Positions 635-22,930 of a stretch of 46,005 bases of DNA are shown one piece after another. Source of the stretch: a virus (Duplodnaviria; Caudoviricetes); the IMG/VR virus record IMGVR_UViG_3300042821_000034, positions 1 to 46,005 of that record; one strand, given 5' to 3'. Numbering within the stretch: the first letter of the stretch is position 1; each line of letters opens with the position of its first letter. A program made the translations under genes and the position numbers. The notes beneath the pieces were generated by a model. It was given only the letters and a program-made list of their open reading frames with translations, ran no database searches and was not told the DNA's origin.

Positions 635-3600
635 CTAGCCACCGGCTCCAAAGGACATCGGCATCATCATGCCGCCGCCCAGGCCGCCGCCGAAGTCGAA
701 GCCGCCGCCACCGCCACCGCCGAAGTCAAAGCCGCCACCGCCACTGAACCCGCTGCCCATGCCGCCCCAGCCCCAATTGTTGAGGGTGTTGAACGGGATC
801 GGCGACAGGCTGGAGGCGCCGAAGGGCGACCCCGTCGCGGTGGTGTCGAGCAGCGGCGTCGAGAAGGTCGAGGTCTCGATCGCCGGCAGCATGCCGGCCA
901 TGGCGATGCTGCCGCCCTGCGAGGCTGGCGCACCCGGCGTGAAGCCGCCGGTCGGCAGGCTGGCGAGGCCGGAGGGGGCCAGTGACAGTCCGCTGGCGCC
1001 GCCGCCTCCCGGATTCTGGGCGGGCGGCGCTACCTGGGATGGCAGTACCGGCATCGCCTCGGGCGGCACCGGCGTCATCGAGGGCGCCCGGCTTTCATCC
1101 TTGAAAGCGAATTCGAACGCCTTCGCCAGCTCCGGCGGCACCGTGGGTTGCTGGCCCTGCGGGTGCTGGCTCTGCTGTAGGGCTTCCTGCTGGTGCAGGG
1201 CCTCGGCAGCGGCGTTGGCCTGGTCGACGGTGTCGTACTTGCCGAGGTGCCGTCCGGTATCCTTGTAGCGCTGGAACGCCTCCTCGTTGGACATGATTCG
1301 GCCACCCTCGGCCGGGACCGAGGGGACGTTCACTTCCTTGCCGCCGTCGTTGAAGCCGAGCGTCCGTACGGTTGAAATCGAGCCGTCGGCGTTCTGCACC
1401 GCCGGCTGACTGCCGACGTCGAAGTTAGGCTTCCTGTCCATGCCCAGCCGCTCGCCGAGCTGTCGTTGCCCCTCGCCGCGGACGCCTGGCGGGCCGTACC
1501 GGACCGAGCTTTGGCCGCTGTTCAGCTCGCGCAGGGGATAGTCAGGCGTTCCGAAGGGGACGCGCGCAACCTCGGTTCCGCTTCTCGGATCAGCTGGATT
1601 GATTACCGGCATCGGCGCCGGGACATCACGCCCGCCATATTCGAACCTGTCCAGCTCCGGCATGTTGGACTGTATCGCCCGTGTGCTGGCAGATTCCGCG
1701 GGCGTGTTCATGTTCTTGAACTGCTCCGAGGTTATCGACGGCGTCGGCGAGAGCCGTTCCTTGATGGCGTCGAACAGCCCCACGTTTTGCACGCCGCCCT
1801 GACGCGACTGCGCGCTGATGTCGGTGGCCCCTGACGTGCCGAGGTCGCTGCGCTTGCCGAGGTTCTTCGGCGGGCCTTCCTTGATGGCGTCCTGGAGCTG
1901 CTGCGGGGTGATGCCGGCTTTGCTCAGGTTCTCCTTGGTCAAATAAGGCCCGATCGTGTCCTTTAGCTCGGGATTGGTGAGCAGGGCGCGGGCGGTCTGG
2001 CTTCCGTATTTGTCCGGCAGGAACGCCGCCATGCCGGGCATGATCTTCTGCGCCAGCGCGCTGACCCTGCCGTCGAGGACGGCGTGTGCCGGGTTGACCG
2101 GGGCCGGAGGCGGCGCAGGTGGCGGGGGTGGCGCGGCAGCCCTGGGCGGGGGTGCCGGCGGCGGCGTCATCACCGCCGCCGCCGCCGGCGGCGGCGCAGT
2201 TGCTGAAGGAGGTGCTTGCGCCGCCTGCGCCGCAGGCGGGGGTGCTACCGCCTGCGGTGGTTTGATTTCGTTGAGCTTGGCCGCGCCCTCATCGTAGAGC
2301 GTGGTAGCTGTGGTCGCCACCTCGTTGGCGGGGTCCTGCAGGCCGCCGACACCGGCCACCGGCACAGCCGATGCGCCCTTGTCGAACACGGATGCGGGTT
2401 GTGCTGCGGTTGGCCCCCTCTCCGCAGGTTGCGAAACCGTGCCGGCGCCGCCGCTGCCGGGGACGCCCTTCTCGGCCAGGTAGCCGCTGACGGCATCCCG
2501 CATGGTGGAGGTCGCGCTGCCGACGTCCTTCGGGTTGGCCGTGGGCGCCTGCGCCACCTGGGTCTGCGGATTCTTCAGCGCGGCCTCGGTCTTCTTGTGC
2601 CACTCCTGGATGTTGCGGACGTTGTCGGGGCCGTGTTCGTCGGGGCGGATGTCCTTGCGGAAGAACTGCGACCCGCCTTCCGAGGTGAAGGTGGGGGTGG
2701 AGTTGGTGCGCGACTTGGCCGCCGTGCCGCCGGAGGCGTAATCGGTCGCCAGGTTGGTGATGTTGCTGCCGGCGAACGCCTTGTCCTGAAGCGCGTACAT
2801 CTCCGCTTTGAGCTGCGGGTTGTTGCGGATCTCGGCCAGCCGGGATTGGAACTTGGCAGGGTCCTTGACCATGTAATCGGCGTGGTAAGCCGGGTCCATT
2901 GCCTTGGCGAACGGCTCGCCGCGCGAGTTGACCCGGTTCATCATGGCCTCGGCCACGCCTTGGCGGCCTGCCGCCGAGCCGTCTTCCGCGATCATGATCG
3001 CGGCCATGGTCTCCCGCACCGACGGGTTGGCGTCGGCGATCGCCTTGTAGGGCGCGCGCTGATCGGCCAATGCGCCGCCGCCACCGGCGCTCGCCTGGCC
3101 GCCCGGCAGCAGCTCCGACGGCACCAGGCTGGCGGCCGGGGCGTTGGCGACCTTGGTGTCGGCCGGCCGCGTCCGCGACTGCGATGAGAACTCGGTCGAC
3201 CCTGACGTCCCCTTGGTCTCCAGGCTGCTCTGCGGGCCGACGCCCTTCGGCGGCTCCGCGGTCAGCTTGTCGGCCGGTGTGGTCTCGGTCGGTGACGGCC
3301 AGTTGGTCCTGGGGTCGGCCTGCGCGGGCAGGCCTTTGTCCCAGGCCGGCGTTGACGGGCCGGGCGGCGGCGCATCGCGCGCCGCCTTGATGATGGACTG
3401 GCCCTCGTCTTTGTGCCGATCTCCGGCCTGGATCTGGCCGTGGCCGACGATGTTCTCCTGCTTAATGTTGAACTGCCGCTGCAATTGCGGGATCAGCTTG
3501 GCCGCCGACGCGCGCTGTGCCTCGTTAGGCTCGCCGCTGCCGACCGTCGAGATGCCGATCGCGTTGGAGTTGGAGATGTCGGGGCGGTCACTGCGTTGGC

Positions 3601-4465
3601 CGGCGCCCGGTCCCTTGACGTGGTTGGTGCGCGCGTCCAGCGGCGCGCCCTGGTACACCTTGCCGTCCTTGTCGATGTAATAGTGGTAGCCGAAGCGGCC
3701 GCCGCCGCGCGACGGGTCGCCGCTCTTGGCGGTGTTGAGCGCGCTCTCCAGGCTGTCGCCGCCGGTCCAGTGGGTGACGATCGAGGTGAACGGCTTCGGC
3801 GGTGCGTTGCCATACTTATCGCCGGGGCCATAGGCCTGGTGGATCTCCACGTCGCCAGGTGCCGTCGAACCCTTTTCGTAGCCACGCACGGCCCCGCCGG
3901 GGGCGTTTTCGTGCATGTAGGCCACCGCGGCCGGAGACCCCGGCGGCAGCTTGGAGGCGTCGAATCCTGGTTTGAGGCCAGGGATGGCGTCCGAAGCCGC
4001 CGGCCCGCCTTCCGCACCCATCGGCGGCGCGATCGGTGCCGCCCTGCCTTTACGGACGTGGTCGGCTATCTTGGCGCCGTTGGCCTGCTGTGCGGCCTTA
4101 TTCTGCTCCAGGTACTGCTTCAGCGCGCTGCCCTTGGCGTTGCCGAACAGGCCGCTCAGGACGCTTCCCAGCTCGCCGTCGTTCTTCCATACGCCGTGTG
4201 TGGTCGACGGCGTCCGGCCCGGGGCCAGCATCGGCGCCTGCAGCGCGGGGGTGTCCTTGACGTCGACGCCCTTGGGGCCTTTGACCAGATTGTGCAGCAG
4301 CTCAAGCGTCTGGCTCGGCGGCGTGCCCCTTGGCACAACGCCAAGGTTGACCCCGAGGGCGTGCAGGGCGGTCGCGGTGTCATCGCCGAGCAGCGGCGCC
4401 TTGCCCTCCAATATCTTCTGCCGGGTGCGCTCGCGCTCGATCGCTTGATCGTCCATGTAGGCCAT
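635..4465 (-). CDS. Large internal virion/ejection protein with an N-acetylmuramoyl-L-alanine amidase (Amidase_2) domain and a SleB-type (Hydrolase_2) cell-wall hydrolase domain
   Basis: Amidase motifs 'SIVTHWTGG...GYHYYIDKDGKVYQ...NSNAIGIST...IVGHGQI...HKDEG'; SleB-like 'MAAIMIAEDG...QGVAEAMMNRV...GSQFFR'; Pro/Ala/Gly linkers; last gene of the late operon. Confidence 0.8.
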   Translation of the reverse strand: MAYMDDQAIERERTRQKILEGKAPLLGDDTATALHALGVNLGVVPRGTPPSQTLELLHNLVKGPKGVDVKDTPALQAPMLAPGRTPSTTHGVWKNDGELGSVLSGLFGNAKGSALKQYLEQNKAAQQANGAKIADHVRKGRAAPIAPPMGAEGGPAASDAIPGLKPGFDASKLPPGSPAAVAYMHENAPGGAVRGYEKGSTAPGDVEIHQAYGPGDKYGNAPPKPFTSIVTHWTGGDSLESALNTAKSGDPSRGGGRFGYHYYIDKDGKVYQGAPLDARTNHVKGPGAGQRSDRPDISNSNAIGISTVGSGEPNEAQRASAAKLIPQLQRQFNIKQENIVGHGQIQAGDRHKDEGQSIIKAARDAPPPGPSTPAWDKGLPAQADPRTNWPSPTETTPADKLTAEPPKGVGPQSSLETKGTSGSTEFSSQSRTRPADTKVANAPAASLVPSELLPGGQASAGGGGALADQRAPYKAIADANPSVRETMAAIMIAEDGSAAGRQGVAEAMMNRVNSRGEPFAKAMDPAYHADYMVKDPAKFQSRLAEIRNNPQLKAEMYALQDKAFAGSNITNLATDYASGGTAAKSRTNSTPTFTSEGGSQFFRKDIRPDEHGPDNVRNIQEWHKKTEAALKNPQTQVAQAPTANPKDVGSATSTMRDAVSGYLAEKGVPGSGGAGTVSQPAERGPTAAQPASVFDKGASAVPVAGVGGLQDPANEVATTATTLYDEGAAKLNEIKPPQAVAPPPAAQAAQAPPSATAPPPAAAAVMTPPPAPPPRAAAPPPPPAPPPAPVNPAHAVLDGRVSALAQKIMPGMAAFLPDKYGSQTARALLTNPELKDTIGPYLTKENLSKAGITPQQLQDAIKEGPPKNLGKRSDLGTSGATDISAQSRQGGVQNVGLFDAIKERLSPTPSITSEQFKNMNTPAESASTRAIQSNMPELDRFEYGGRDVPAPMPVINPADPRSGTEVARVPFGTPDYPLRELNSGQSSVRYGPPGVRGEGQRQLGERLGMDRKPNFDVGSQPAVQNADGSISTVRTLGFNDGGKEVNVPSVPAEGGRIMSNEEAFQRYKDTGRHLGKYDTVDQANAAAEALHQQEALQQSQHPQGQQPTVPPELAKAFEFAFKDESRAPSMTPVPPEAMPVLPSQVAPPAQNPGGGGASGLSLAPSGLASLPTGGFTPGAPASQGGSIAMAGMLPAIETSTFSTPLLDTTATGSPFGASSLSPIPFNTLNNWGWGGMGSGFSGGGGFDFGGGGGGGFDFGGGLGGGMMMPMSFGAGG

Positions 4466-8465: not shown

Positions 8466-9161
8466 CTATACTTGCATGCTCGACGCCATGGCGTTGCCAA
8501 GGCCCGTACCGGAGGCGCCGGCCAGGCCGCTGGACAAACCACCCAGCGACGAGCCACCACCATACTGCGTAATCTTGATCGGCTCGACCTGCTTGGCGAC
8601 CTGGTATGCCGCCAGCTGGCCTGCACGTTCATTGCCGGCCAGGCGGATGTCCTGGCCGGAAGCGTTGAGAATGGTGTTGGCGCGGTTGGTCAGACCATAT
8701 TGCGAGCCGCCATAGGACTGCACCGCGGCCAGCGCGGAGATGCGCTTGCGGGCGTCGATCGCGGCCTGCTGGATCTGGCCCTGGATGCCCGCCTTGACGT
8801 CATCCGCGGCGCCCTGCTGGCCGGACAGCATCCGGGAAGCGATCGCGTTCGGATCGCCGTTCGCCATCTTGGCGACGTCCTCGGGCGTCAGCGCCTCCGT
8901 AAGCCGCGCCTGTTCGTTCTCTTGCGCGGCGGTCTGCTTCTTGACGTCCAGCTCACTCAACGCGCCGGTGCGGGCCGCCTCCGCGTTGCGCCGCAGATCT
9001 TCGTCGCGCTTGGTGAACTCCTGCGCCTGGCGGCGCTGGTAGGCCACCCACTGCGCGTTGGCGTTCTCCTGCTGGCTGGCCATCTCCTGCTGCTGCTGCA
9101 TGTTGTACACAGCCATGCCGATGGAGAGACCCATGCCGATGAGTGAGATAGGATCGCACAT
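8466..9161 (-). CDS. Small internal virion protein (T7 gp14-like position, MCDP N-terminus)
   Basis: MCDPIS + hydrophobic N-terminus, Gln/Ala coiled coil, Gly/Ser-rich C-terminus. Confidence 0.7.
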   Translation of the reverse strand: MCDPISLIGMGLSIGMAVYNMQQQQEMASQQENANAQWVAYQRRQAQEFTKRDEDLRRNAEAARTGALSELDVKKQTAAQENEQARLTEALTPEDVAKMANGDPNAIASRMLSGQQGAADDVKAGIQGQIQQAAIDARKRISALAAVQSYGGSQYGLTNRANTILNASGQDIRLAGNERAGQLAAYQVAKQVEPIKITQYGGGSSLGGLSSGLAGASGTGLGNAMASSMQV

Positions 9162-9164
9162 GGC

Positions 9165-9809
9165 TTAACTACTGCTCGTTGTTATCGGACCAGAGCCGCG
9201 GCCGGAGTTGGAATTGAGCTGCCGGCCGAGTTCGTATTGACCGTACACCGGCGCCGCCGCGCTGCCGAGGCCGATCGCGATGGGTTTGAACATGTCGCCG
9301 AGCGCGCCGGTGTTGGGCTGCGTCAGCTGCGCGTTCGCCACCGACGAGGCCGCGGTGTTGGCGGCGACGGTGGGGTCTTCGGTGGCGTAGAGCTGGTTGT
9401 AGGCTTGCTGTTGCTGGCTTGCGATCGACTTGCGCAATTCAGCCGTGTCGGTATCCGCCTTCGCGCGCACGCCCGCTTCGTTGACGGCGTTCTGGTTCTC
9501 CAGCAGATTCTGCGCGTAGCCGGCCGCGCTCGATCGCAGCGTACCGGCGCGCGCCAGGTCGTAGGTCATGCTGTTCTTGGCGGTGTCGTACTGCGTCTCC
9601 AGCTGCGGCAGCGTGTAGTCGAGTTCGGCTTTCCGGTACTTCTCGTAGAACGGGTCGCCGAAATTATCGTCGCCAAACAGCGAATCGATCGCAGCCTTGC
9701 CCTGGTCGAGACGAGCCAGGCGCTTGTTCTCTTTCTGCTTGGCTTCGGCAGCCTGCTGCATTTCGAACTGGACCATTTGATTATTTGAAGGTCCGCTTTT
9801 ACCGCCCAT
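9165..9809 (-). CDS. P22 gp7-like ejection/pilot protein with an MGGK N-terminus
   Basis: MGGKSG start; Gln/Ala-rich helix; 'LARAGTLRSSAAG' resembles the gp7-type A.GGL.S motif; hydrophobic Gly-rich C-terminal patch. Confidence 0.6.
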   Translation of the reverse strand: MGGKSGPSNNQMVQFEMQQAAEAKQKENKRLARLDQGKAAIDSLFGDDNFGDPFYEKYRKAELDYTLPQLETQYDTAKNSMTYDLARAGTLRSSAAGYAQNLLENQNAVNEAGVRAKADTDTAELRKSIASQQQQAYNQLYATEDPTVAANTAASSVANAQLTQPNTGALGDMFKPIAIGLGSAAAPVYGQYELGRQLNSNSGRGSGPITTSSS

Positions 9810-9818
9810 GGCGAGGCC

Positions 9819-10172
9819 TCATATCTGGATACTGGTTAGCGTCGGATCGCGATGCTTGATCGGTGACGGTGTCTTGCCGAGCGCTGCCCAGTACTCCGGC
9901 GGCTTGACGATCGACTTGGCGAGCACGGTTCCGGTGTCTTCGTCTTCGGTCGTCGCCGTGTTGGACACGCCTTCGGCCAGCACCGCCGGCGGCGGTGGTT
10001 TTGCCGTAGCTTCGGCTGCCTTCTTCTTGACGTTCACGGTCTGCTGATACTGTGACAGATCCAGCGGCGTCTCCTTGGCAAGCGTCTTCTTCGCTTCCTC
10101 GGGCGTTGCGTAGCCTGATGTATCCGGCGGTTGTTCGTAATAGTTGCCGCCGCCGCCACCCTTACCGCCCAT
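9819..10172 (-). CDS. MGGK-array protein 4 (divergent paralog)
   Basis: MGGKGGGGG start; C-terminal 'TGTVLAKSIVKPPEYW...LTSIQI' is related to the other array members. Confidence 0.8.
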   Translation of the reverse strand: MGGKGGGGGNYYEQPPDTSGYATPEEAKKTLAKETPLDLSQYQQTVNVKKKAAEATAKPPPPAVLAEGVSNTATTEDEDTGTVLAKSIVKPPEYWAALGKTPSPIKHRDPTLTSIQI

Positions 10173-10181
10173 GGCCGATCC

Positions 10182-10646
10182 TCACGTTTGCGTCGTTGTC
10201 AGGCTGCCCTTGCTGCCTGGCCGCTTATAGGTGTTGCCGACCCAGTACTTCGGCGGCGACAGAACCGCGCCGCCGAGCAGGTCGCCGGTGTTGTCCGCTG
10301 CCTTGGGCTGGTCGACGGCGCCGCCGGCAGTGATCGGATCGCCGATCGGCTTCGCCGTGTCGTCCTTCTTCTCTTCAACAACCGGCGTCTCGACCTTTGG
10401 CTCTTCGACCACGGGAGCTGCTTCAACCACCGGCTCGGCCACCGGCGCCGGCTCCGGCGGGAACAGGTTCAGATAAAACGCACGATCGACACCGCCCTCG
10501 CCGTACAGCGACTTGAAGCTATCCGGGTCGTCCTTCTCCATTTGCTGGACCTGCTTCTTCATCTGGCCGCGCATGCCCTCGTCCTGGAGCGCCGTCTCCC
10601 GGGTCCACATCGTACCGCCGCCACCGCCACCGCCTTTGCCGCCCAT
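10182..10646 (-). CDS. MGGK-array protein 3
   Basis: MGGKG7 start, PVVEE repeats, 'KPIGDPITAGGAVDQP...TGDLLGGAVLSPPKYWVGNTYKRP...GSLTTTQT'. Confidence 0.85.
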   Translation of the reverse strand: MGGKGGGGGGGTMWTRETALQDEGMRGQMKKQVQQMEKDDPDSFKSLYGEGGVDRAFYLNLFPPEPAPVAEPVVEAAPVVEEPKVETPVVEEKKDDTAKPIGDPITAGGAVDQPKAADNTGDLLGGAVLSPPKYWVGNTYKRPGSKGSLTTTQT

Positions 10647-10655
10647 GGCCGATCC

Positions 10656-11066
10656 TCACGTCTGCGTTGTCGTCAGGCTACCGGAAGCCCCGCCCGGCCG
10701 CTTGTACTTGTTGTCGGTCCAGTATTTCGGCGGATTCAGCACCGAGCCGCCGAGCAGATCGCCAGTGTTTGTCTTGGGCTGATCGACGGCGCCGCCAGTG
10801 GCGATCGGATCTCCGATCGGCTTGGCCTCTTCCACTACCGGCTCTTCCACTTTCTTTTCTTCTACGACAGGAGCTTCTTCCACCTTCTTGATCTCCGGCG
10901 TCACGATCGGCTCCGGCTTGTTGTACTTCTCGTCGTATTCGGCCTGGGTGACGTAGCCGGTGCCACCCGTGCCATGCCAGTCGGGATCGATCACAAACGC
11001 CGTGCCGTCGAGCGCCCTGGGCGTCCCATCACCGCCTCCACCGCCGCCGCCACCTTTGCCGCCCAT
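10656..11066 (-). CDS. MGGK-array protein 2
   Basis: MGGKG8 start, PVVEE repeats, same conserved C-terminal block. Confidence 0.85.
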   Translation of the reverse strand: MGGKGGGGGGGGDGTPRALDGTAFVIDPDWHGTGGTGYVTQAEYDEKYNKPEPIVTPEIKKVEEAPVVEEKKVEEPVVEEAKPIGDPIATGGAVDQPKTNTGDLLGGSVLNPPKYWTDNKYKRPGGASGSLTTTQT

Positions 11067-11075
11067 GTCAAATCC

Positions 11076-11519
11076 TCACGTCTGAGATATCTTGAGGCTG
11101 CCGCCGCCGGCGCTGGGCCGCTTGTAGTTGTTGCCGACCCAGTACTTCGGCGGCTTCAGCACCGCGCCGCCGAGCACGTCTCCGGTGGTGTCGGGTCCGC
11201 TCAGGCCGTCATTGTCGATCTTCTGGCCAGTGCCGGATGGCTGGTCGACGGCGCCGCCGGTGGGAATCGGATCTCCGATCGGTTTGACGTCCTCCACCAC
11301 AGGCTCTTCGACAACCTTCTTCTCTTCGACCACCGGCTCCTCTACCTTCTTGACCTCCGGCACCACGATCGGGTCTTCGACCTTGGGGTACTTCTTGTCG
11401 TAGTCGGCTTTCAGGATGTAGCTGCCCTGGCCGGTGCCCATGTAGTCGGGGTCGAGCACGTAGCCCATCTGTTCCAAGCCTTCGACGCCGACGCCGCCGC
11501 TTCCGCCTTTGCCACCCAT
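11076..11519 (-). CDS. MGGK-array protein 1
   Basis: ATG at 11519 overlaps the GNAT stop (TGATG); MGGKGGSGG start; conserved C-terminal block. Confidence 0.85.
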   Translation of the reverse strand: MGGKGGSGGVGVEGLEQMGYVLDPDYMGTGQGSYILKADYDKKYPKVEDPIVVPEVKKVEEPVVEEKKVVEEPVVEDVKPIGDPIPTGGAVDQPSGTGQKIDNDGLSGPDTTGDVLGGAVLKPPKYWVGNNYKRPSAGGGSLKISQT

Positions 11520-12025
11520 CACAGCACCTTTCTAAAAATCATACCGACCGGCTCGGCCCCGAAGTGCCGCCCGACCATGTTCATCAACGAGTTCTGCGAA
11601 GGCATGCCGCTGCAAATCGGGAAGTTGATCACCTTGCAGCCGTCGCCGCGGGCAAGATCGATCACGGTGGCGACCAGGCGGCGGCCAAGATCGGTGCGGC
11701 GATATTCCGGCGTGGTGTAGGTCTCGTCCATCACCGCCATCGGATCGGTGAAGACGCCGAAGATGTGGTAGCTGCACACGCCGACCATCCGGCTGCCCTC
11801 CATGCCGAGCACGTAGATCGCGTACTGCGATCCGAGCGCGTGCTCCAGGTAACTGAGGGCTTTCGGCTTGTGGTAGGCCATATGCAGCGACCACTCCGAT
11901 TGATCGAAGAAATCGCCGAGGAAGTCGGCGATCATCGCAGCATCGTCCTTGGTCGCCAGCCGCACATCAATGTGTGGCGTGCGAACGGACCTCCGCTTTC
12001 TGGATATGGTCGTATGCATATTCAT
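11519..12025 (-). CDS. GNAT family N-acetyltransferase
   Basis: 'VRLATKDDAAMI' start of fold; motif A 'DETYTTPEYRRTDLGRRLVATVIDLARGDGC'. The start at MNMH (12025) is my estimate. Confidence 0.85.
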   Translation of the reverse strand: MNMHTTISRKRRSVRTPHIDVRLATKDDAAMIADFLGDFFDQSEWSLHMAYHKPKALSYLEHALGSQYAIYVLGMEGSRMVGVCSYHIFGVFTDPMAVMDETYTTPEYRRTDLGRRLVATVIDLARGDGCKVINFPICSGMPSQNSLMNMVGRHFGAEPVGMIFRKVL

Positions 12026-12482
12026 CGCGCAGCCACCTGTAAGAAATGAAGTCTTCTCCTGCGCTGCCGTAGCCACGCAGTAGCGCTTCCGGTTCCGCGC
12101 CGATCAACCGCATAAACCTGGCGACGTCATCCCGGCGGGCCAGCGCCGCCGCCTCGACCCGGTGGTACCCCGCCTCGCGTAGGAACGGTATCACAAACTC
12201 CCGGATCTGCCGCAGCATCGGCAGCAGGCTGGCACCCCAATCCTGGGTGCCGAAGGCAAAGCCGGCGCCGACGCCGGAGCGCCGCTGGGTCATGCCCCAG
12301 ACCGCCAACGGCCCGATGTCGGGGTCGACCGCGCAGAAGGCGAACACCTTGTGGCGCATGATGGTCTCTGGCAGGTACCCCAGGTTCACCTCGCAGGCAC
12401 CCAACTCCAGCGCATCGTCCACCCGCAGATTGTCGAGCACGGATGCGATCATGCCGTGGTCGGCGTTGATGATATGGATCAT
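11967..12482 (-). CDS. Phage GNAT-fold protein (T7 gp13 / P22 gp14 position)
   Basis: 'NLRVDDALEL...LAVWG...GYHRVEA...RFMRLIGAEPEALLRGYGSAGEDFISYRW'; ATGA overlap with the nozzle gene stop at 12479-12482. Confidence 0.7.
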   Translation of the reverse strand: MIHIINADHGMIASVLDNLRVDDALELGACEVNLGYLPETIMRHKVFAFCAVDPDIGPLAVWGMTQRRSGVGAGFAFGTQDWGASLLPMLRQIREFVIPFLREAGYHRVEAAALARRDDVARFMRLIGAEPEALLRGYGSAGEDFISYRWLRDEYAYDHIQKAEVRSHATH

Positions 12483-13921
12483 CCGCTCTCCCCGGTCTGG
12501 TAGTGGACCACCATGTTGGACAGCGTCTGCGGGCCGGCTTGCTGCGAGCGCAGTCGCAGGCTCATGTGGGTGGAGCGGCCGTTGATCTCGAATTTGCCTT
12601 GCGGGAAGGAGGCGCCGTCGAAGGCGCCGACCCAATCCTCGACGTCAGGGTCTTCGACATTGAAGGCGCAATAGACATCCCACGGCACCCCGTAGCAGGT
12701 GGCGTCAAGCGCGGTGAAGGTCTTGGTGGTAGCGACGTGCTCGCCGGCGTGGAACGGGAACACCAGCTCGACATAGCAATCGTCATAGACCGGGCCGGCC
12801 GGATCGATGCCGCCATAGGCGTAAACGACGTTGTTGTCGTCCCGCACCACAATACGGTTGTTGTGCACTGCCGCGGCCGTGATCACGAAACCGGCATCGT
12901 ACTCCGACCAGGCGGTGATCTTCGGCCCCGGGAAGGCAGAGAGGATGTAGATCCGCGACGTCAGCGGGCCGCCTTCATAAGAGGCCGCGCCGGACATGAT
13001 GATCCAGAACCGGCCTGTCACGGGCTGCAGGATGGCGATCGCGCCCGACATCCAGTCCTCGCCCATGTAGCGGAACAGGTCCTGCAACACCGGATCTAGC
13101 GGCGAGCCGATGTCGGACACGGCAGCTGCCAGCGATGAGTTGCGGGCGCGGAGCGAGCGGATGCCGGACTGCGACAGGTACATCACGTCGCCGGAGCCGT
13201 ATTGCAGCACGCTGCGCCAGGCGATCGCGCCGGCCTCCCGCATGGTCTGGGTGTACTGGTTCTTCAGCGGATCCGGGTCGATAGCCCACAGCTGGGTGGC
13301 GGTGCGTGAGAAGATCGCGAGCTTGTCGTAGTAGACTTCGAGCGCGATACAATCCGTCATGTCGGAATCGCCGAGCGACAGATCGATGTTGCCGGAGCCG
13401 GTGCCGGTCCAGTCGGCGGGGTTGCCGACCGCGGAGAAGTACAGCACCGTGTTCGACACAGTGTACATCTTGGTCTTGTAGGTGCGGCAGTAGTAGCCCT
13501 TGGCGGCCGGCAGATCGACGCCGGCATAGTAGCGGCCGACGGTGCCGACGTTGTCCTTCCACAGGACCACGAACACCTTGTTGTCGAACAGATCGTGGTC
13601 GATGATCTCATAGATCGACGTGGTCTGCTGTCCGAGCACACCGACGGTCCACGGGTCTTTCGGCGTCTGGCTCTCGCCAGGCGGCTCGGTGACGTAGGGG
13701 CCGTTGGGGCCGAAGGTGTAGAGCTTGCGGTTGACCTCGACCAAACCCTTGCTTTGCGCCGAGCACTCCCAGAACGGCACGAATGCCATCCGCTTCTCGA
13801 TCTCGCCGCCGGGCGTAATGTGGCAGTTGAGCATCGACCGCAGCGTTCCTGCAGGAGCTGTCAGTTCGCTCCTGCGGAGATCCAGGCCGGCTGCGAAATC
13901 GGTAATCGTAAAATACGGCAC
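12479..13921 (-). CDS. Tail nozzle / tail tubular protein B (P22 gp10 / T7 gp12 class)
   Basis: 480 aa, beta-rich; 'DFAAGLD...NCHITPGGEIEKR', 'LYFSAVGNPADW'; follows the adaptor gene. Confidence 0.75.
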   Translation of the reverse strand: MPYFTITDFAAGLDLRRSELTAPAGTLRSMLNCHITPGGEIEKRMAFVPFWECSAQSKGLVEVNRKLYTFGPNGPYVTEPPGESQTPKDPWTVGVLGQQTTSIYEIIDHDLFDNKVFVVLWKDNVGTVGRYYAGVDLPAAKGYYCRTYKTKMYTVSNTVLYFSAVGNPADWTGTGSGNIDLSLGDSDMTDCIALEVYYDKLAIFSRTATQLWAIDPDPLKNQYTQTMREAGAIAWRSVLQYGSGDVMYLSQSGIRSLRARNSSLAAAVSDIGSPLDPVLQDLFRYMGEDWMSGAIAILQPVTGRFWIIMSGAASYEGGPLTSRIYILSAFPGPKITAWSEYDAGFVITAAAVHNNRIVVRDDNNVVYAYGGIDPAGPVYDDCYVELVFPFHAGEHVATTKTFTALDATCYGVPWDVYCAFNVEDPDVEDWVGAFDGASFPQGKFEINGRSTHMSLRLRSQQAGPQTLSNMVVHYQTGESG

Positions 13922-21899: not shown

Positions 21900-22127
21900 T
21901 CAGGAGTTTTCGTCATGCTTGTACTTAGGCCCGGGAATATCCGGCAGCTGCTTGATGGTAGCCCTAGGCTTGGATGAGATCGCGTTGACCTCGGGGGCTA
22001 CCGGCTGCGGGCCTTTGTTCGGCGAGGTGTGGTGGGTGTAGGTGTCCTGGGTCTTGGACGGCGGCGGCTTGATGCCGGGCGGCGCCTTGACGGGGTTGAG
22101 CGGCGGCGCCTTGGTTAGCTTGGCCAT
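21900..22127 (-). CDS. Small basic Pro/Lys-rich protein
   Basis: TAATG coupling with the upstream gene; ends 'ATIKQLPDIPGPKYKHDENS'. Confidence 0.7.
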   Translation of the reverse strand: MAKLTKAPPLNPVKAPPGIKPPPSKTQDTYTHHTSPNKGPQPVAPEVNAISSKPRATIKQLPDIPGPKYKHDENS

Positions 22128-22930
22128 TAGCGTGGTCCTCCTGGACGTTGTCTTGCGATTGCATCTTCTGCGGCGCGGTTAAGATTCCGAAATCCATCCT
22201 TGAATATGCCACTGTCCGTCACGCGCAGCGCCTCTTCGCGCTGCCGCTGGTCGACCGGCCCGCCACCCTTTTCGGGGTCGCCACCCTGCATGGCCATGAG
22301 ATATCGCACAATGGTCTCTTCCTTGCTCGGAAGATTACGCCACAAATCCTTCAGCGACGGGTCATCGCGCAGCTTCTTCAGACCACGGTGGAGGGATTCG
22401 TGCACGATTGCGGACGGGTCAGGCCCGCCGGTTCCGACATACATGCTGTCTTTTGATGGCGAATAGGCGCCGCCGATGTTGGCATCATCTGTGACAACGT
22501 CGATCGCAGCGCGGCCTGGATCGTAACCGTAGCCGGCGACCGGCATCCGGTTGGCTGCAAGCGCCGCCTGGGCCAGCGTCGTTCCCAGCTTGTCACTCAC
22601 TGGCGCCGTGTCTGGCGTTCGCAGGTCGATGTTGCGCGATCCCTGGTCATCAAGCGCCAACGACGTAACCTGGCTCAATTTCATGCCGTCGGCCGACATC
22701 GGCTCGAAATGCTTGCCATATTGCTGGCCGAGGACACGCGCGACGTTACCTTGCGTATACGGCTCGTTGCCGGTGCCGTAGCCGAAATCATACTTGCGGG
22801 CGTAGGCGGCATCTTCCGGCGTCGGATAGCCCTCCATCGGCGGCAACGCCGCAGCCGGCATCGGCGGCGGTGGCGGCCCCGCCGGGGCGCCACCCATCAA
22901 CCTGGTAAACATGTCGCCGATGCCGGCCAT
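22127..22930 (-). CDS. HExxH (zincin-like) domain protein
   Basis: 'GGAYSPSKDSMYV...SAIVHESLHRGL...EETIVR': HExxH plus a downstream Glu. Confidence 0.55.
   Translation of the reverse strand: MAGIGDMFTRLMGGAPAGPPPPPMPAAALPPMEGYPTPEDAAYARKYDFGYGTGNEPYTQGNVARVLGQQYGKHFEPMSADGMKLSQVTSLALDDQGSRNIDLRTPDTAPVSDKLGTTLAQAALAANRMPVAGYGYDPGRAAIDVVTDDANIGGAYSPSKDSMYVGTGGPDPSAIVHESLHRGLKKLRDDPSLKDLWRNLPSKEETIVRYLMAMQGGDPEKGGGPVDQRQREEALRVTDSGIFKDGFRNLNRAAEDAIARQRPGGPR

Follow-up and report, generated by a model that had tools for sequence, protein, structure and literature searches.

Five consecutive genes in the virus record IMGVR_UViG_3300042821_000034 (Duplodnaviria; Caudoviricetes; 46,005 nucleotides, hereafter the window) encode proteins that all start Met-Gly-Gly-Lys (MGGK), and they directly follow two genes with GCN5-related N-acetyltransferase (GNAT) folds, raising the question of whether these enzymes act on the shared head, and to what end. 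The original prediction took the GGK leader to be an acylation tag that both GNATs use to direct a gp7-like protein and four extra cargo proteins into the capsid or ejectosome. The gene anatomy it described is all present: the stop codon of the second GNAT gene overlaps the ATG of the first array gene (TGATG, a gap of -1), and the four gaps within the array all measure 9 nt, with the Shine–Dalgarno (SD) sequence overlapping the stop codon as TGAGGA in three and TGAGG in one. A six-frame search of the window for ATG-GGN-GGN-AAR strings returned the five array starts only. We call the GNAT genes GNAT1 and GNAT2 and the array genes M1 to M5 (Table 1). Among related phages the GGK head goes with GNAT2, while GNAT1 goes with Met-Cys starts, such as that of the T7-gp14-slot protein. 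The reading that we favour, at roughly even odds (about 0.5), is that each GNAT acylates its own kind of N-terminus, on proteins that are probably packaged and ejected.

N-terminal heads and GNAT genes in related phages

Related loci were gathered mostly through the tail nozzle gene, an anchor independent of both the heads and the GNATs, and were supplemented with earlier GNAT2- and M5-anchored loci. A first set of 145 distinct loci was scored with local profiles; starts were curated by hand in 11 of them (nine gp14-slot genes with ATC, ATT or ACG before Cys, one spurious Cys call and one M5 with an Ile codon before GGK), and one locus with a run of N was excluded from the M5 counts. The same profiles were applied to 50 held-out loci with less than 90% identity to the first set, in which three M5 starts were curated and 18 loci had no gp14-slot gene in the available DNA. 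Altogether 195 loci were analysed, compared with about 890 nozzle-bearing stretches estimated in IMG/VR, giving 194 distinct loci for M5 and 177 for the gp14-slot protein. Kinship was corrected for by counting independent pairs on a FastTree tree of the nozzle (152 rows).

The gp14-slot protein carried Cys at residue 2 in 160 of 161 GNAT1-positive loci and in 2 of 16 GNAT1-negative loci, and the held-out GNAT1-positive loci gave 27 of 27. This Cys is the sole Cys of the protein in all 145 of 145 homologs. Nine independent pairs showed seven changes in the same direction, none in the opposite direction and two unchanged (p = 0.016), and the GNAT1 rule is thus robust to kinship correction. Linkage is a poor explanation for it, since GNAT1 and the gp14-slot gene lie more than 1 kb apart. 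Seven cultured phages hand-picked from other groups fit as well: T7, P-SSP7 and epsilon15 have both gp13 and Cys2, while phiKMV, KP34, SP6 and phiAB1 lack gp13 and have the starts MAF, MWW, MAI and MAM, respectively. The pair test quoted is the strict one, in which a short open reading frame (ORF) of loci L520, L546 and L548 is not counted as GNAT1; its inclusion in one pair test was dropped after later scoring gave no support. This 125-aa ORF lies in the nozzle-M5 interval in place of GNAT1, shows weak similarity to the GNAT2 profile (E 0.005-0.05) and is possibly a displaced Cys-writer. In L477, which has neither GNAT, the GNAT slot is taken by a cupin-looking ORF with a phrog_12032 match (L477:6164-6676).

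For M5, a [GSA]..K head was found in 110 of 124 GNAT2-positive loci and a Cys start in two, while in GNAT1-only loci M5 started with Cys in 60 of 63 cases. Four GNAT2-negative loci flagged for Lys proved to be alternative-start artefacts of Met-Cys proteins. Cross-controls on 104 thinned loci were flat (GNAT2 versus Cys, p = 0.52; GNAT1 versus Lys, p = 0.10). The GNAT2 rule is near-perfect in counts but not yet significant after kinship correction. The predicted link between the GGK head and its neighbouring GNATs is supported for GNAT2 only, and a joint action of both enzymes on GGK is not supported, since GNAT1 tracks Met-Cys starts. The 14 GNAT2-positive M5 proteins without a Lys head comprised 12 with Gly or Ser starts and two with Cys starts. 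Given the Lys-less heads, Lys is rejected as a required acceptor, and the proposed Lys acetylation in the manner of histone H4 is not supported as the key step.

The head is also portable. Unrelated small genes inserted before M5 at five loci carried the head matching the local enzyme in seven of seven readable cases: MGGK in four genes of the GNAT2-positive loci L089 and L329, and Met-Cys in three genes of the GNAT1-only loci L365, L381 and L393. The inserted genes of L089 and L329 are unrelated to M5, with which they share the MGGK head, whereas M1-M4 are paralogous. The view that the MGGK head is under selection is likewise supported. In a GNAT1-only clade (L394-L410), extra M5-like genes between M5 and the gp14-slot gene have no Cys, and in L417, L422 and L442 HNH-like insertions occupy that position.

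Beyond this family the association did not extend to a general rule. A scan for the pattern MGGKGGG returned 119 loci, 80 of them with flanks, and yielded 42 plausible starts; a recognised GNAT lay upstream of 11, nine of which came from this family, and the other 31 had no upstream match to three GNAT profiles. The pattern is accordingly rejected as a GNAT-specific marker across all phages. Upstream of eight other MGGK loci, no ORF had a GNAT match below E 0.05. A scan of prokaryote genomes with the M5 profile gave no match. In L100, L124, L119 and L137, proteins with MGGKGGG starts are encoded downstream of NlpC/P60 or DUF6950 genes, within tail modules of other kinds, and no GNAT gene adjoins them; some of these are tail-tip proteins. 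In L129:2028-2991 and L148:1242-1781, a GNAT-like ORF and then MGGK-start genes directly follow a terminase-like gene, near a gp7.3-like position; neither locus gave a significant family match.

A duplicated family in the array

M1 to M4 are paralogs (M2, M3 and M4 are 67, 57 and 31% identical to M1), and DNA repeats of 63-90% run across their junctions. Common descent through duplication thus explains why the gaps are all 9 nt and why M1 to M4 share a head, and the five MGGK starts amount to two independent cases. In a gene walk through 43 related loci, of which one is identical to the window and four were mis-walked, the interval from GNAT2 through M5 holds one to six genes. Just 50 of the 128 junctions have a 9-nt gap; the gaps range from -8 to 13 nt, with three junctions left unresolved. 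The regular spacing is rejected as a signal and follows from duplication. Relatives carry two to five array members and end their arrays in an M4-type member. Among 100 distinct members gathered from 37 walked loci, MGGK is retained in 78 although the bodies vary strongly; the other 22 start differently, 19 of them with Met-Pro. When the C-terminal 45 residues of the 78 MGGK members were made into a profile, it matched all 100, and it matched in 34 of 145 loci, every one closely related to the window. By these profile matches, the array appears to be a family defined by its tail peptide, expanding and contracting and restricted to one clade.

The array bodies contain 22% Ala, 17% Pro and no Cys, the members measure 97-204 aa, and no known family or folded domain was matched in Pfam or PHROG. 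The ESM Atlas model of M4 (pLDDT 0.33) predicts disorder, and the Atlas search with it gave chance-level leads only, with gp6.7 at 0.81. We suggest that M1-M4 are small, disordered, lineage-specific proteins that probably work most like T7 gp7.3 or gp6.7, with a predicted C-terminal anchor and a variable body. T7 gp7.3 is ordered at C-terminal residues 84-98 only, where it is anchored on the nozzle, and residues 2-15 of gp6.7 wrap the portal barrel (PMC11784390, in part). The 'ejection wedge' proteins, T7 gp7.3 and phiKMV-like gp34, are likewise small, with a low-complexity Pro/Ala core, Lys in the head and a conserved C-terminal end; unlike them, M1-M4 are encoded after the nozzle gene rather than before the portal gene, in two to five copies, and have Gly-rich rather than strongly basic heads. 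Identity with gp7.3 by homology is rejected, with no sequence match to PF11653 and a different gene position. Short low-complexity wedge proteins are described in a 2026 preprint, the accessible part of which contains neither 'acetyl' nor 'acyl' (10.64898/2026.05.18.726046).

These findings bear directly on the cargo model of the original prediction, in which acylated GGK is a transferable capsid-targeting signal that loads independent proteins for delivery into the host. Its template was the capsid-targeting sequence (CTS) of phage T4, likewise a short N-terminal peptide common to several small proteins. The T4 CTS is cleaved by the prohead protease, occurs on unrelated proteins and involves no acyltransferase. 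Here, four of the five tagged proteins are paralogs of a single family rather than unrelated cargo, its constant feature is the C-terminal motif and not MGGK, and the bodies are of low complexity with no folded domain. The portability of the head speaks for the model, as does the sufficiency of the N-terminal part of P22 gp7 for assembly into particles (PMC8402733, in part), and the highly variable bodies and changing copy number would fit host-interaction cargo; on balance we consider this model very unlikely. M1-M4 would have gained the MGGK head by arriving at a position between GNAT2 and M5.

Possible action of the two enzymes

Both upstream genes encode GNAT folds, as originally proposed. 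GNAT1 matched phrog_308 (E 7e-9) with no direct Pfam match; its AlphaFold (AF2) model (pLDDT 95.7) matched PDB GNATs in Foldseek (E 2e-9), and an Atlas structure match linked it to the PF11090 cluster (TM 0.79). Compared directly with T7 gp13, GNAT1 gives a weak profile match (E 0.13). Its gene lies between those of the nozzle and the first ejection protein, the position expected of the T7 gp13 family. GNAT2 matched PF00583 (E 2e-8) and phrog_1249 (E 1e-11), its GNAT fold was recovered by AF2 and Foldseek, and no match was found by tblastn against cultured phages; its ATG lies at 12025, and searches used residues from 12022. Identity of GNAT2 with P22 gp14 by homology is rejected, as there is no detectable relation and P22 gp14 belongs to another family (DUF2824). 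A GNAT fold for the gp13-slot gene is already on record in the annotation of epsilon15 gp13.

Methionine aminopeptidase cleaves off Met when the next residue is small (Gly, Ala, Ser and Cys among others), and is predicted to expose the N-terminus of both kinds of protein. GNAT2 would then acylate the N-terminal amine of the Gly-Gly-Lys head on M5 and M1-M4, the alpha-amine being the likelier site because Lys is dispensable, and GNAT1 would acylate the N-terminal Cys of the gp14-slot protein. In the virion, the capped tip could serve as a handle for docking on the portal or scaffold, comparable to residues 2-15 of T7 gp6.7, or for outer-membrane entry. T7 gp14 and gp6.7 form an outer-membrane channel (PMC11784390, in part), and a gp13 homolog is absent from the detected phiPsa17 virion proteins, as expected for an assembly enzyme (PMC4517105, in part). 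A bolder extension, which we regard as a long shot, is a two-letter N-terminal acylation code in podophages, with the T7 gp13 family as Cys-writer, GNAT2 as Gly-writer and at least one writer adding a fatty acyl; ejected proteins would then be phage-made lipoproteins anchored in the outer membrane, and the MGGK array a variable, lipid-tipped accessory set. Animal viruses have myristoylated entry proteins, of which such phage lipoproteins would be the counterpart.

Several observations weigh against enzymatic tagging. The GNAT2 test with the Lys head gave, in six independent pairs, 2.8 same, 0.1 opposite and 3.1 unchanged (p = 0.25), and the switch of M5 to Cys gave 2.9 same and 1.0 opposite in five pairs (p = 0.63). 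GNAT2 also adjoins the M5 start, so both could move as a single recombination unit. L321 and L619 carry GNAT2 together with a Cys-start M5; L520, L546 and L548 retain Cys without a detectable GNAT1; T7 gp7.3 starts MGKK though the T7 gp13 slot has no GNAT2. To these are added the array members without MGGK, most with Met-Pro starts, and the 31 pattern-scan starts with no profiled GNAT. The closest solved fold to GNAT2 is the polyamine acetyltransferase DpA (8a9n), the others are small-amine acetyltransferases, and all of them act on small amines. The virion fragment of P22 gp7 has the N-terminal sequence Lys-Gly-Gly-Lys-Gly (PMC8402733, in part), and since it could be sequenced, this terminus is at least largely unblocked.

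One way to account for part of these observations is hitchhiking, in which the overlapping GNAT2 and M5 start travel together as a cassette and the substrate acetylated by GNAT2 is a different one, e.g. polyamines condensing packaged DNA. The TGATG overlap in most relatives, the non-significant GNAT2 pair test, the structural match to DpA and the Lys-less and Cys exceptions would all be consistent with it. However, M5 of the window retains MGGK 1.7 kb away from GNAT2, the head persists in 78 of 100 divergent array members and recurs on unrelated inserted genes, and the GNAT1-Cys rule is left unexplained; we therefore hold hitchhiking to be distinctly improbable. Another possibility is that the GNAT folds are non-catalytic assembly chaperones, which recognise the heads and deliver the proteins bearing them to the portal or scaffold with no covalent change. 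Such chaperones would account for the same co-variation, the conserved columns of GNAT1 lack the canonical Q/R-x-x-G-x-G/A loop, the Pfam entry for T7 gp13 reads 'probable scaffold protein', and the sequenceable terminus of P22 gp7 fits as well. Against this, GNAT2 retains a recognisable acetyl-CoA-binding motif A (P105-R108-T110-L116 conserved), and the tight constraint on residue 2, which is either the sole Cys or a small residue, suits alpha-amine or thiol chemistry, leaving chaperones unlikely in our judgement. Acylation by the two GNATs thus remains our preferred reading.

In T7, epsilon15 and many uncultured podophages, a gene with a GNAT fold lies ahead of those for the ejection proteins, and the literature searched names no substrate for its product. 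From the natural gains and losses described here follows a prediction at residue level: gp13 would act on Cys2 of T7 gp14 and gp6.7, and the second enzyme on Gly-start heads. If true, this would explain T7 gene 13, so far unexplained, bring protein modification into the assembly and entry of podophages, and provide a means of loading phage particles with proteins. T7 gp13 is said to be needed for gp6.7 incorporation, a statement with no source in the literature searched. Full-text searches of a collection with few subscription papers, without the classic genetic work on T7 and P22 and without supplements, found no paper on the tag rule, on ejection-protein acylation or on this array, and the accessible part of PMC8954989 contains no 'acetyl'.

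Genomic setting and known relatives

The window is a near-complete phage genome (the virus record is rated 96% complete), with its opening bases repeated at its end. Its minus strand encodes a terminase, portal, capsid, adaptor, nozzle, GNAT1, GNAT2, M1-M5 and the Met-Cys protein, followed by three large proteins of which the final one contains an amidase domain; TerL adjoins the portal gene. Gene order suggests that this block is a podophage ejection module. The gp14-slot protein has a weak profile match to epsilon15 gp14 (E 0.012). Bradyrhizobium is the likely host group, because homologs of M5 with 67-69% identity are present in Bradyrhizobium chromosomes.

Table 1. Genes of the nozzle-to-gp14-slot region, with window positions
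Feature	Length (aa)	Position	Strand	Remarks
Predicted tail nozzle	480	12479..13921	-	Mae-Yong1326-1 homolog annotated 'packaged DNA stabilization protein'; gene comes after SU10-type adaptor
GNAT1, T7 gp13 / internal virion protein A family	171	11967..12482	-	phrog_308, structure match, co-variation; predicted Met-Cys writer
GNAT2, Acetyltransf_1 family		11519..12025	-	PF00583, phrog_1249, motif A; predicted Gly-Gly-Lys head writer
M1, array paralog	147	11076..11519	-	Start MGGKGGSGG; C-terminal motif kept
M2, array paralog	136	10656..11066	-	Start MGGK followed by 8 G
M3, array paralog	154	10182..10646	-	Start MGGK followed by 7 G
M4, array paralog	117	9819..10172	-	Start MGGK followed by 5 G; last and most conserved member; predicted disordered
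M5, ejection-slot protein	214	9165..9809	-	Start MGGKSG; conserved; unrelated to M1-M4 except for the head
T7-gp14-slot protein	231	8466..9161	-	Start Met-Cys-Asp-Pro; sole Cys is residue 2; outside the region of the original prediction

Among 50,697 phage records, the Rhizobium phage RHph_N65 and the Microcystis phage Mae-Yong1326-1 are the sole cultured relatives. Both have the nozzle-GNAT-M5-gp14-slot order of the window, and neither has the array; RHph_N65 carries both GNATs and an MGKK-start M5, Mae-Yong1326-1 only GNAT1 and a Met-Cys M5. T7 resembles the window in that gp13 (PF11090) is a phrog_308 member encoded directly after the nozzle gene, and T7 gp14 and gp6.7 both start Met-Cys like the gp14-slot protein, but T7 has no second GNAT in the gp13 slot and no MGGK array.

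In P22, likewise, a small gene (gp14) precedes an ejection protein, gp7, with a GGK-type mature N-terminus (KGGKGG after OpdA cleavage); P22 gp7 differs in having a 20-residue propeptide before KGG, whereas M5 starts MGGK directly. The suggestion that M5 is a gp7 homolog is not supported, and the identity is rejected for lack of detectable homology (hhalign E 0.16; PF25688 not matched). P22 gp7 without its 20-residue leader retains a burst of about 60%, and the P22 ejection proteins are loaded via the scaffolding protein (PMC8402733, in part). At L453:6482-7640, an M5 homolog comes after GNAT1 and a member of a third GNAT family (phrog_4470); it has about 37 leader residues before KGGG, recalling the gp7 propeptide arrangement.

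Apparent non-AUG starts occur right before Cys in the gp14-slot gene of L136, L413, L414, L417, L418, L421, L422, L442 and L459 (ATC, ATT or ACG), and, as an Ile codon, right before the GGK or Cys head in M5 of L278, L509, L601 and L606; they often follow a good SD and possibly tune copy number. Elsewhere in the window, the gp16-slot protein (1276 aa, 635-4465, minus strand) has Amidase_2 at residues 224-355 and long Pro/Ala/Gly-rich stretches. Upstream of the terminase, a 267-aa ORF (22127-22930, minus strand), with no Pfam or PHROG match, carries an HExxH motif (HESLH) and is a possible zinc peptidase.

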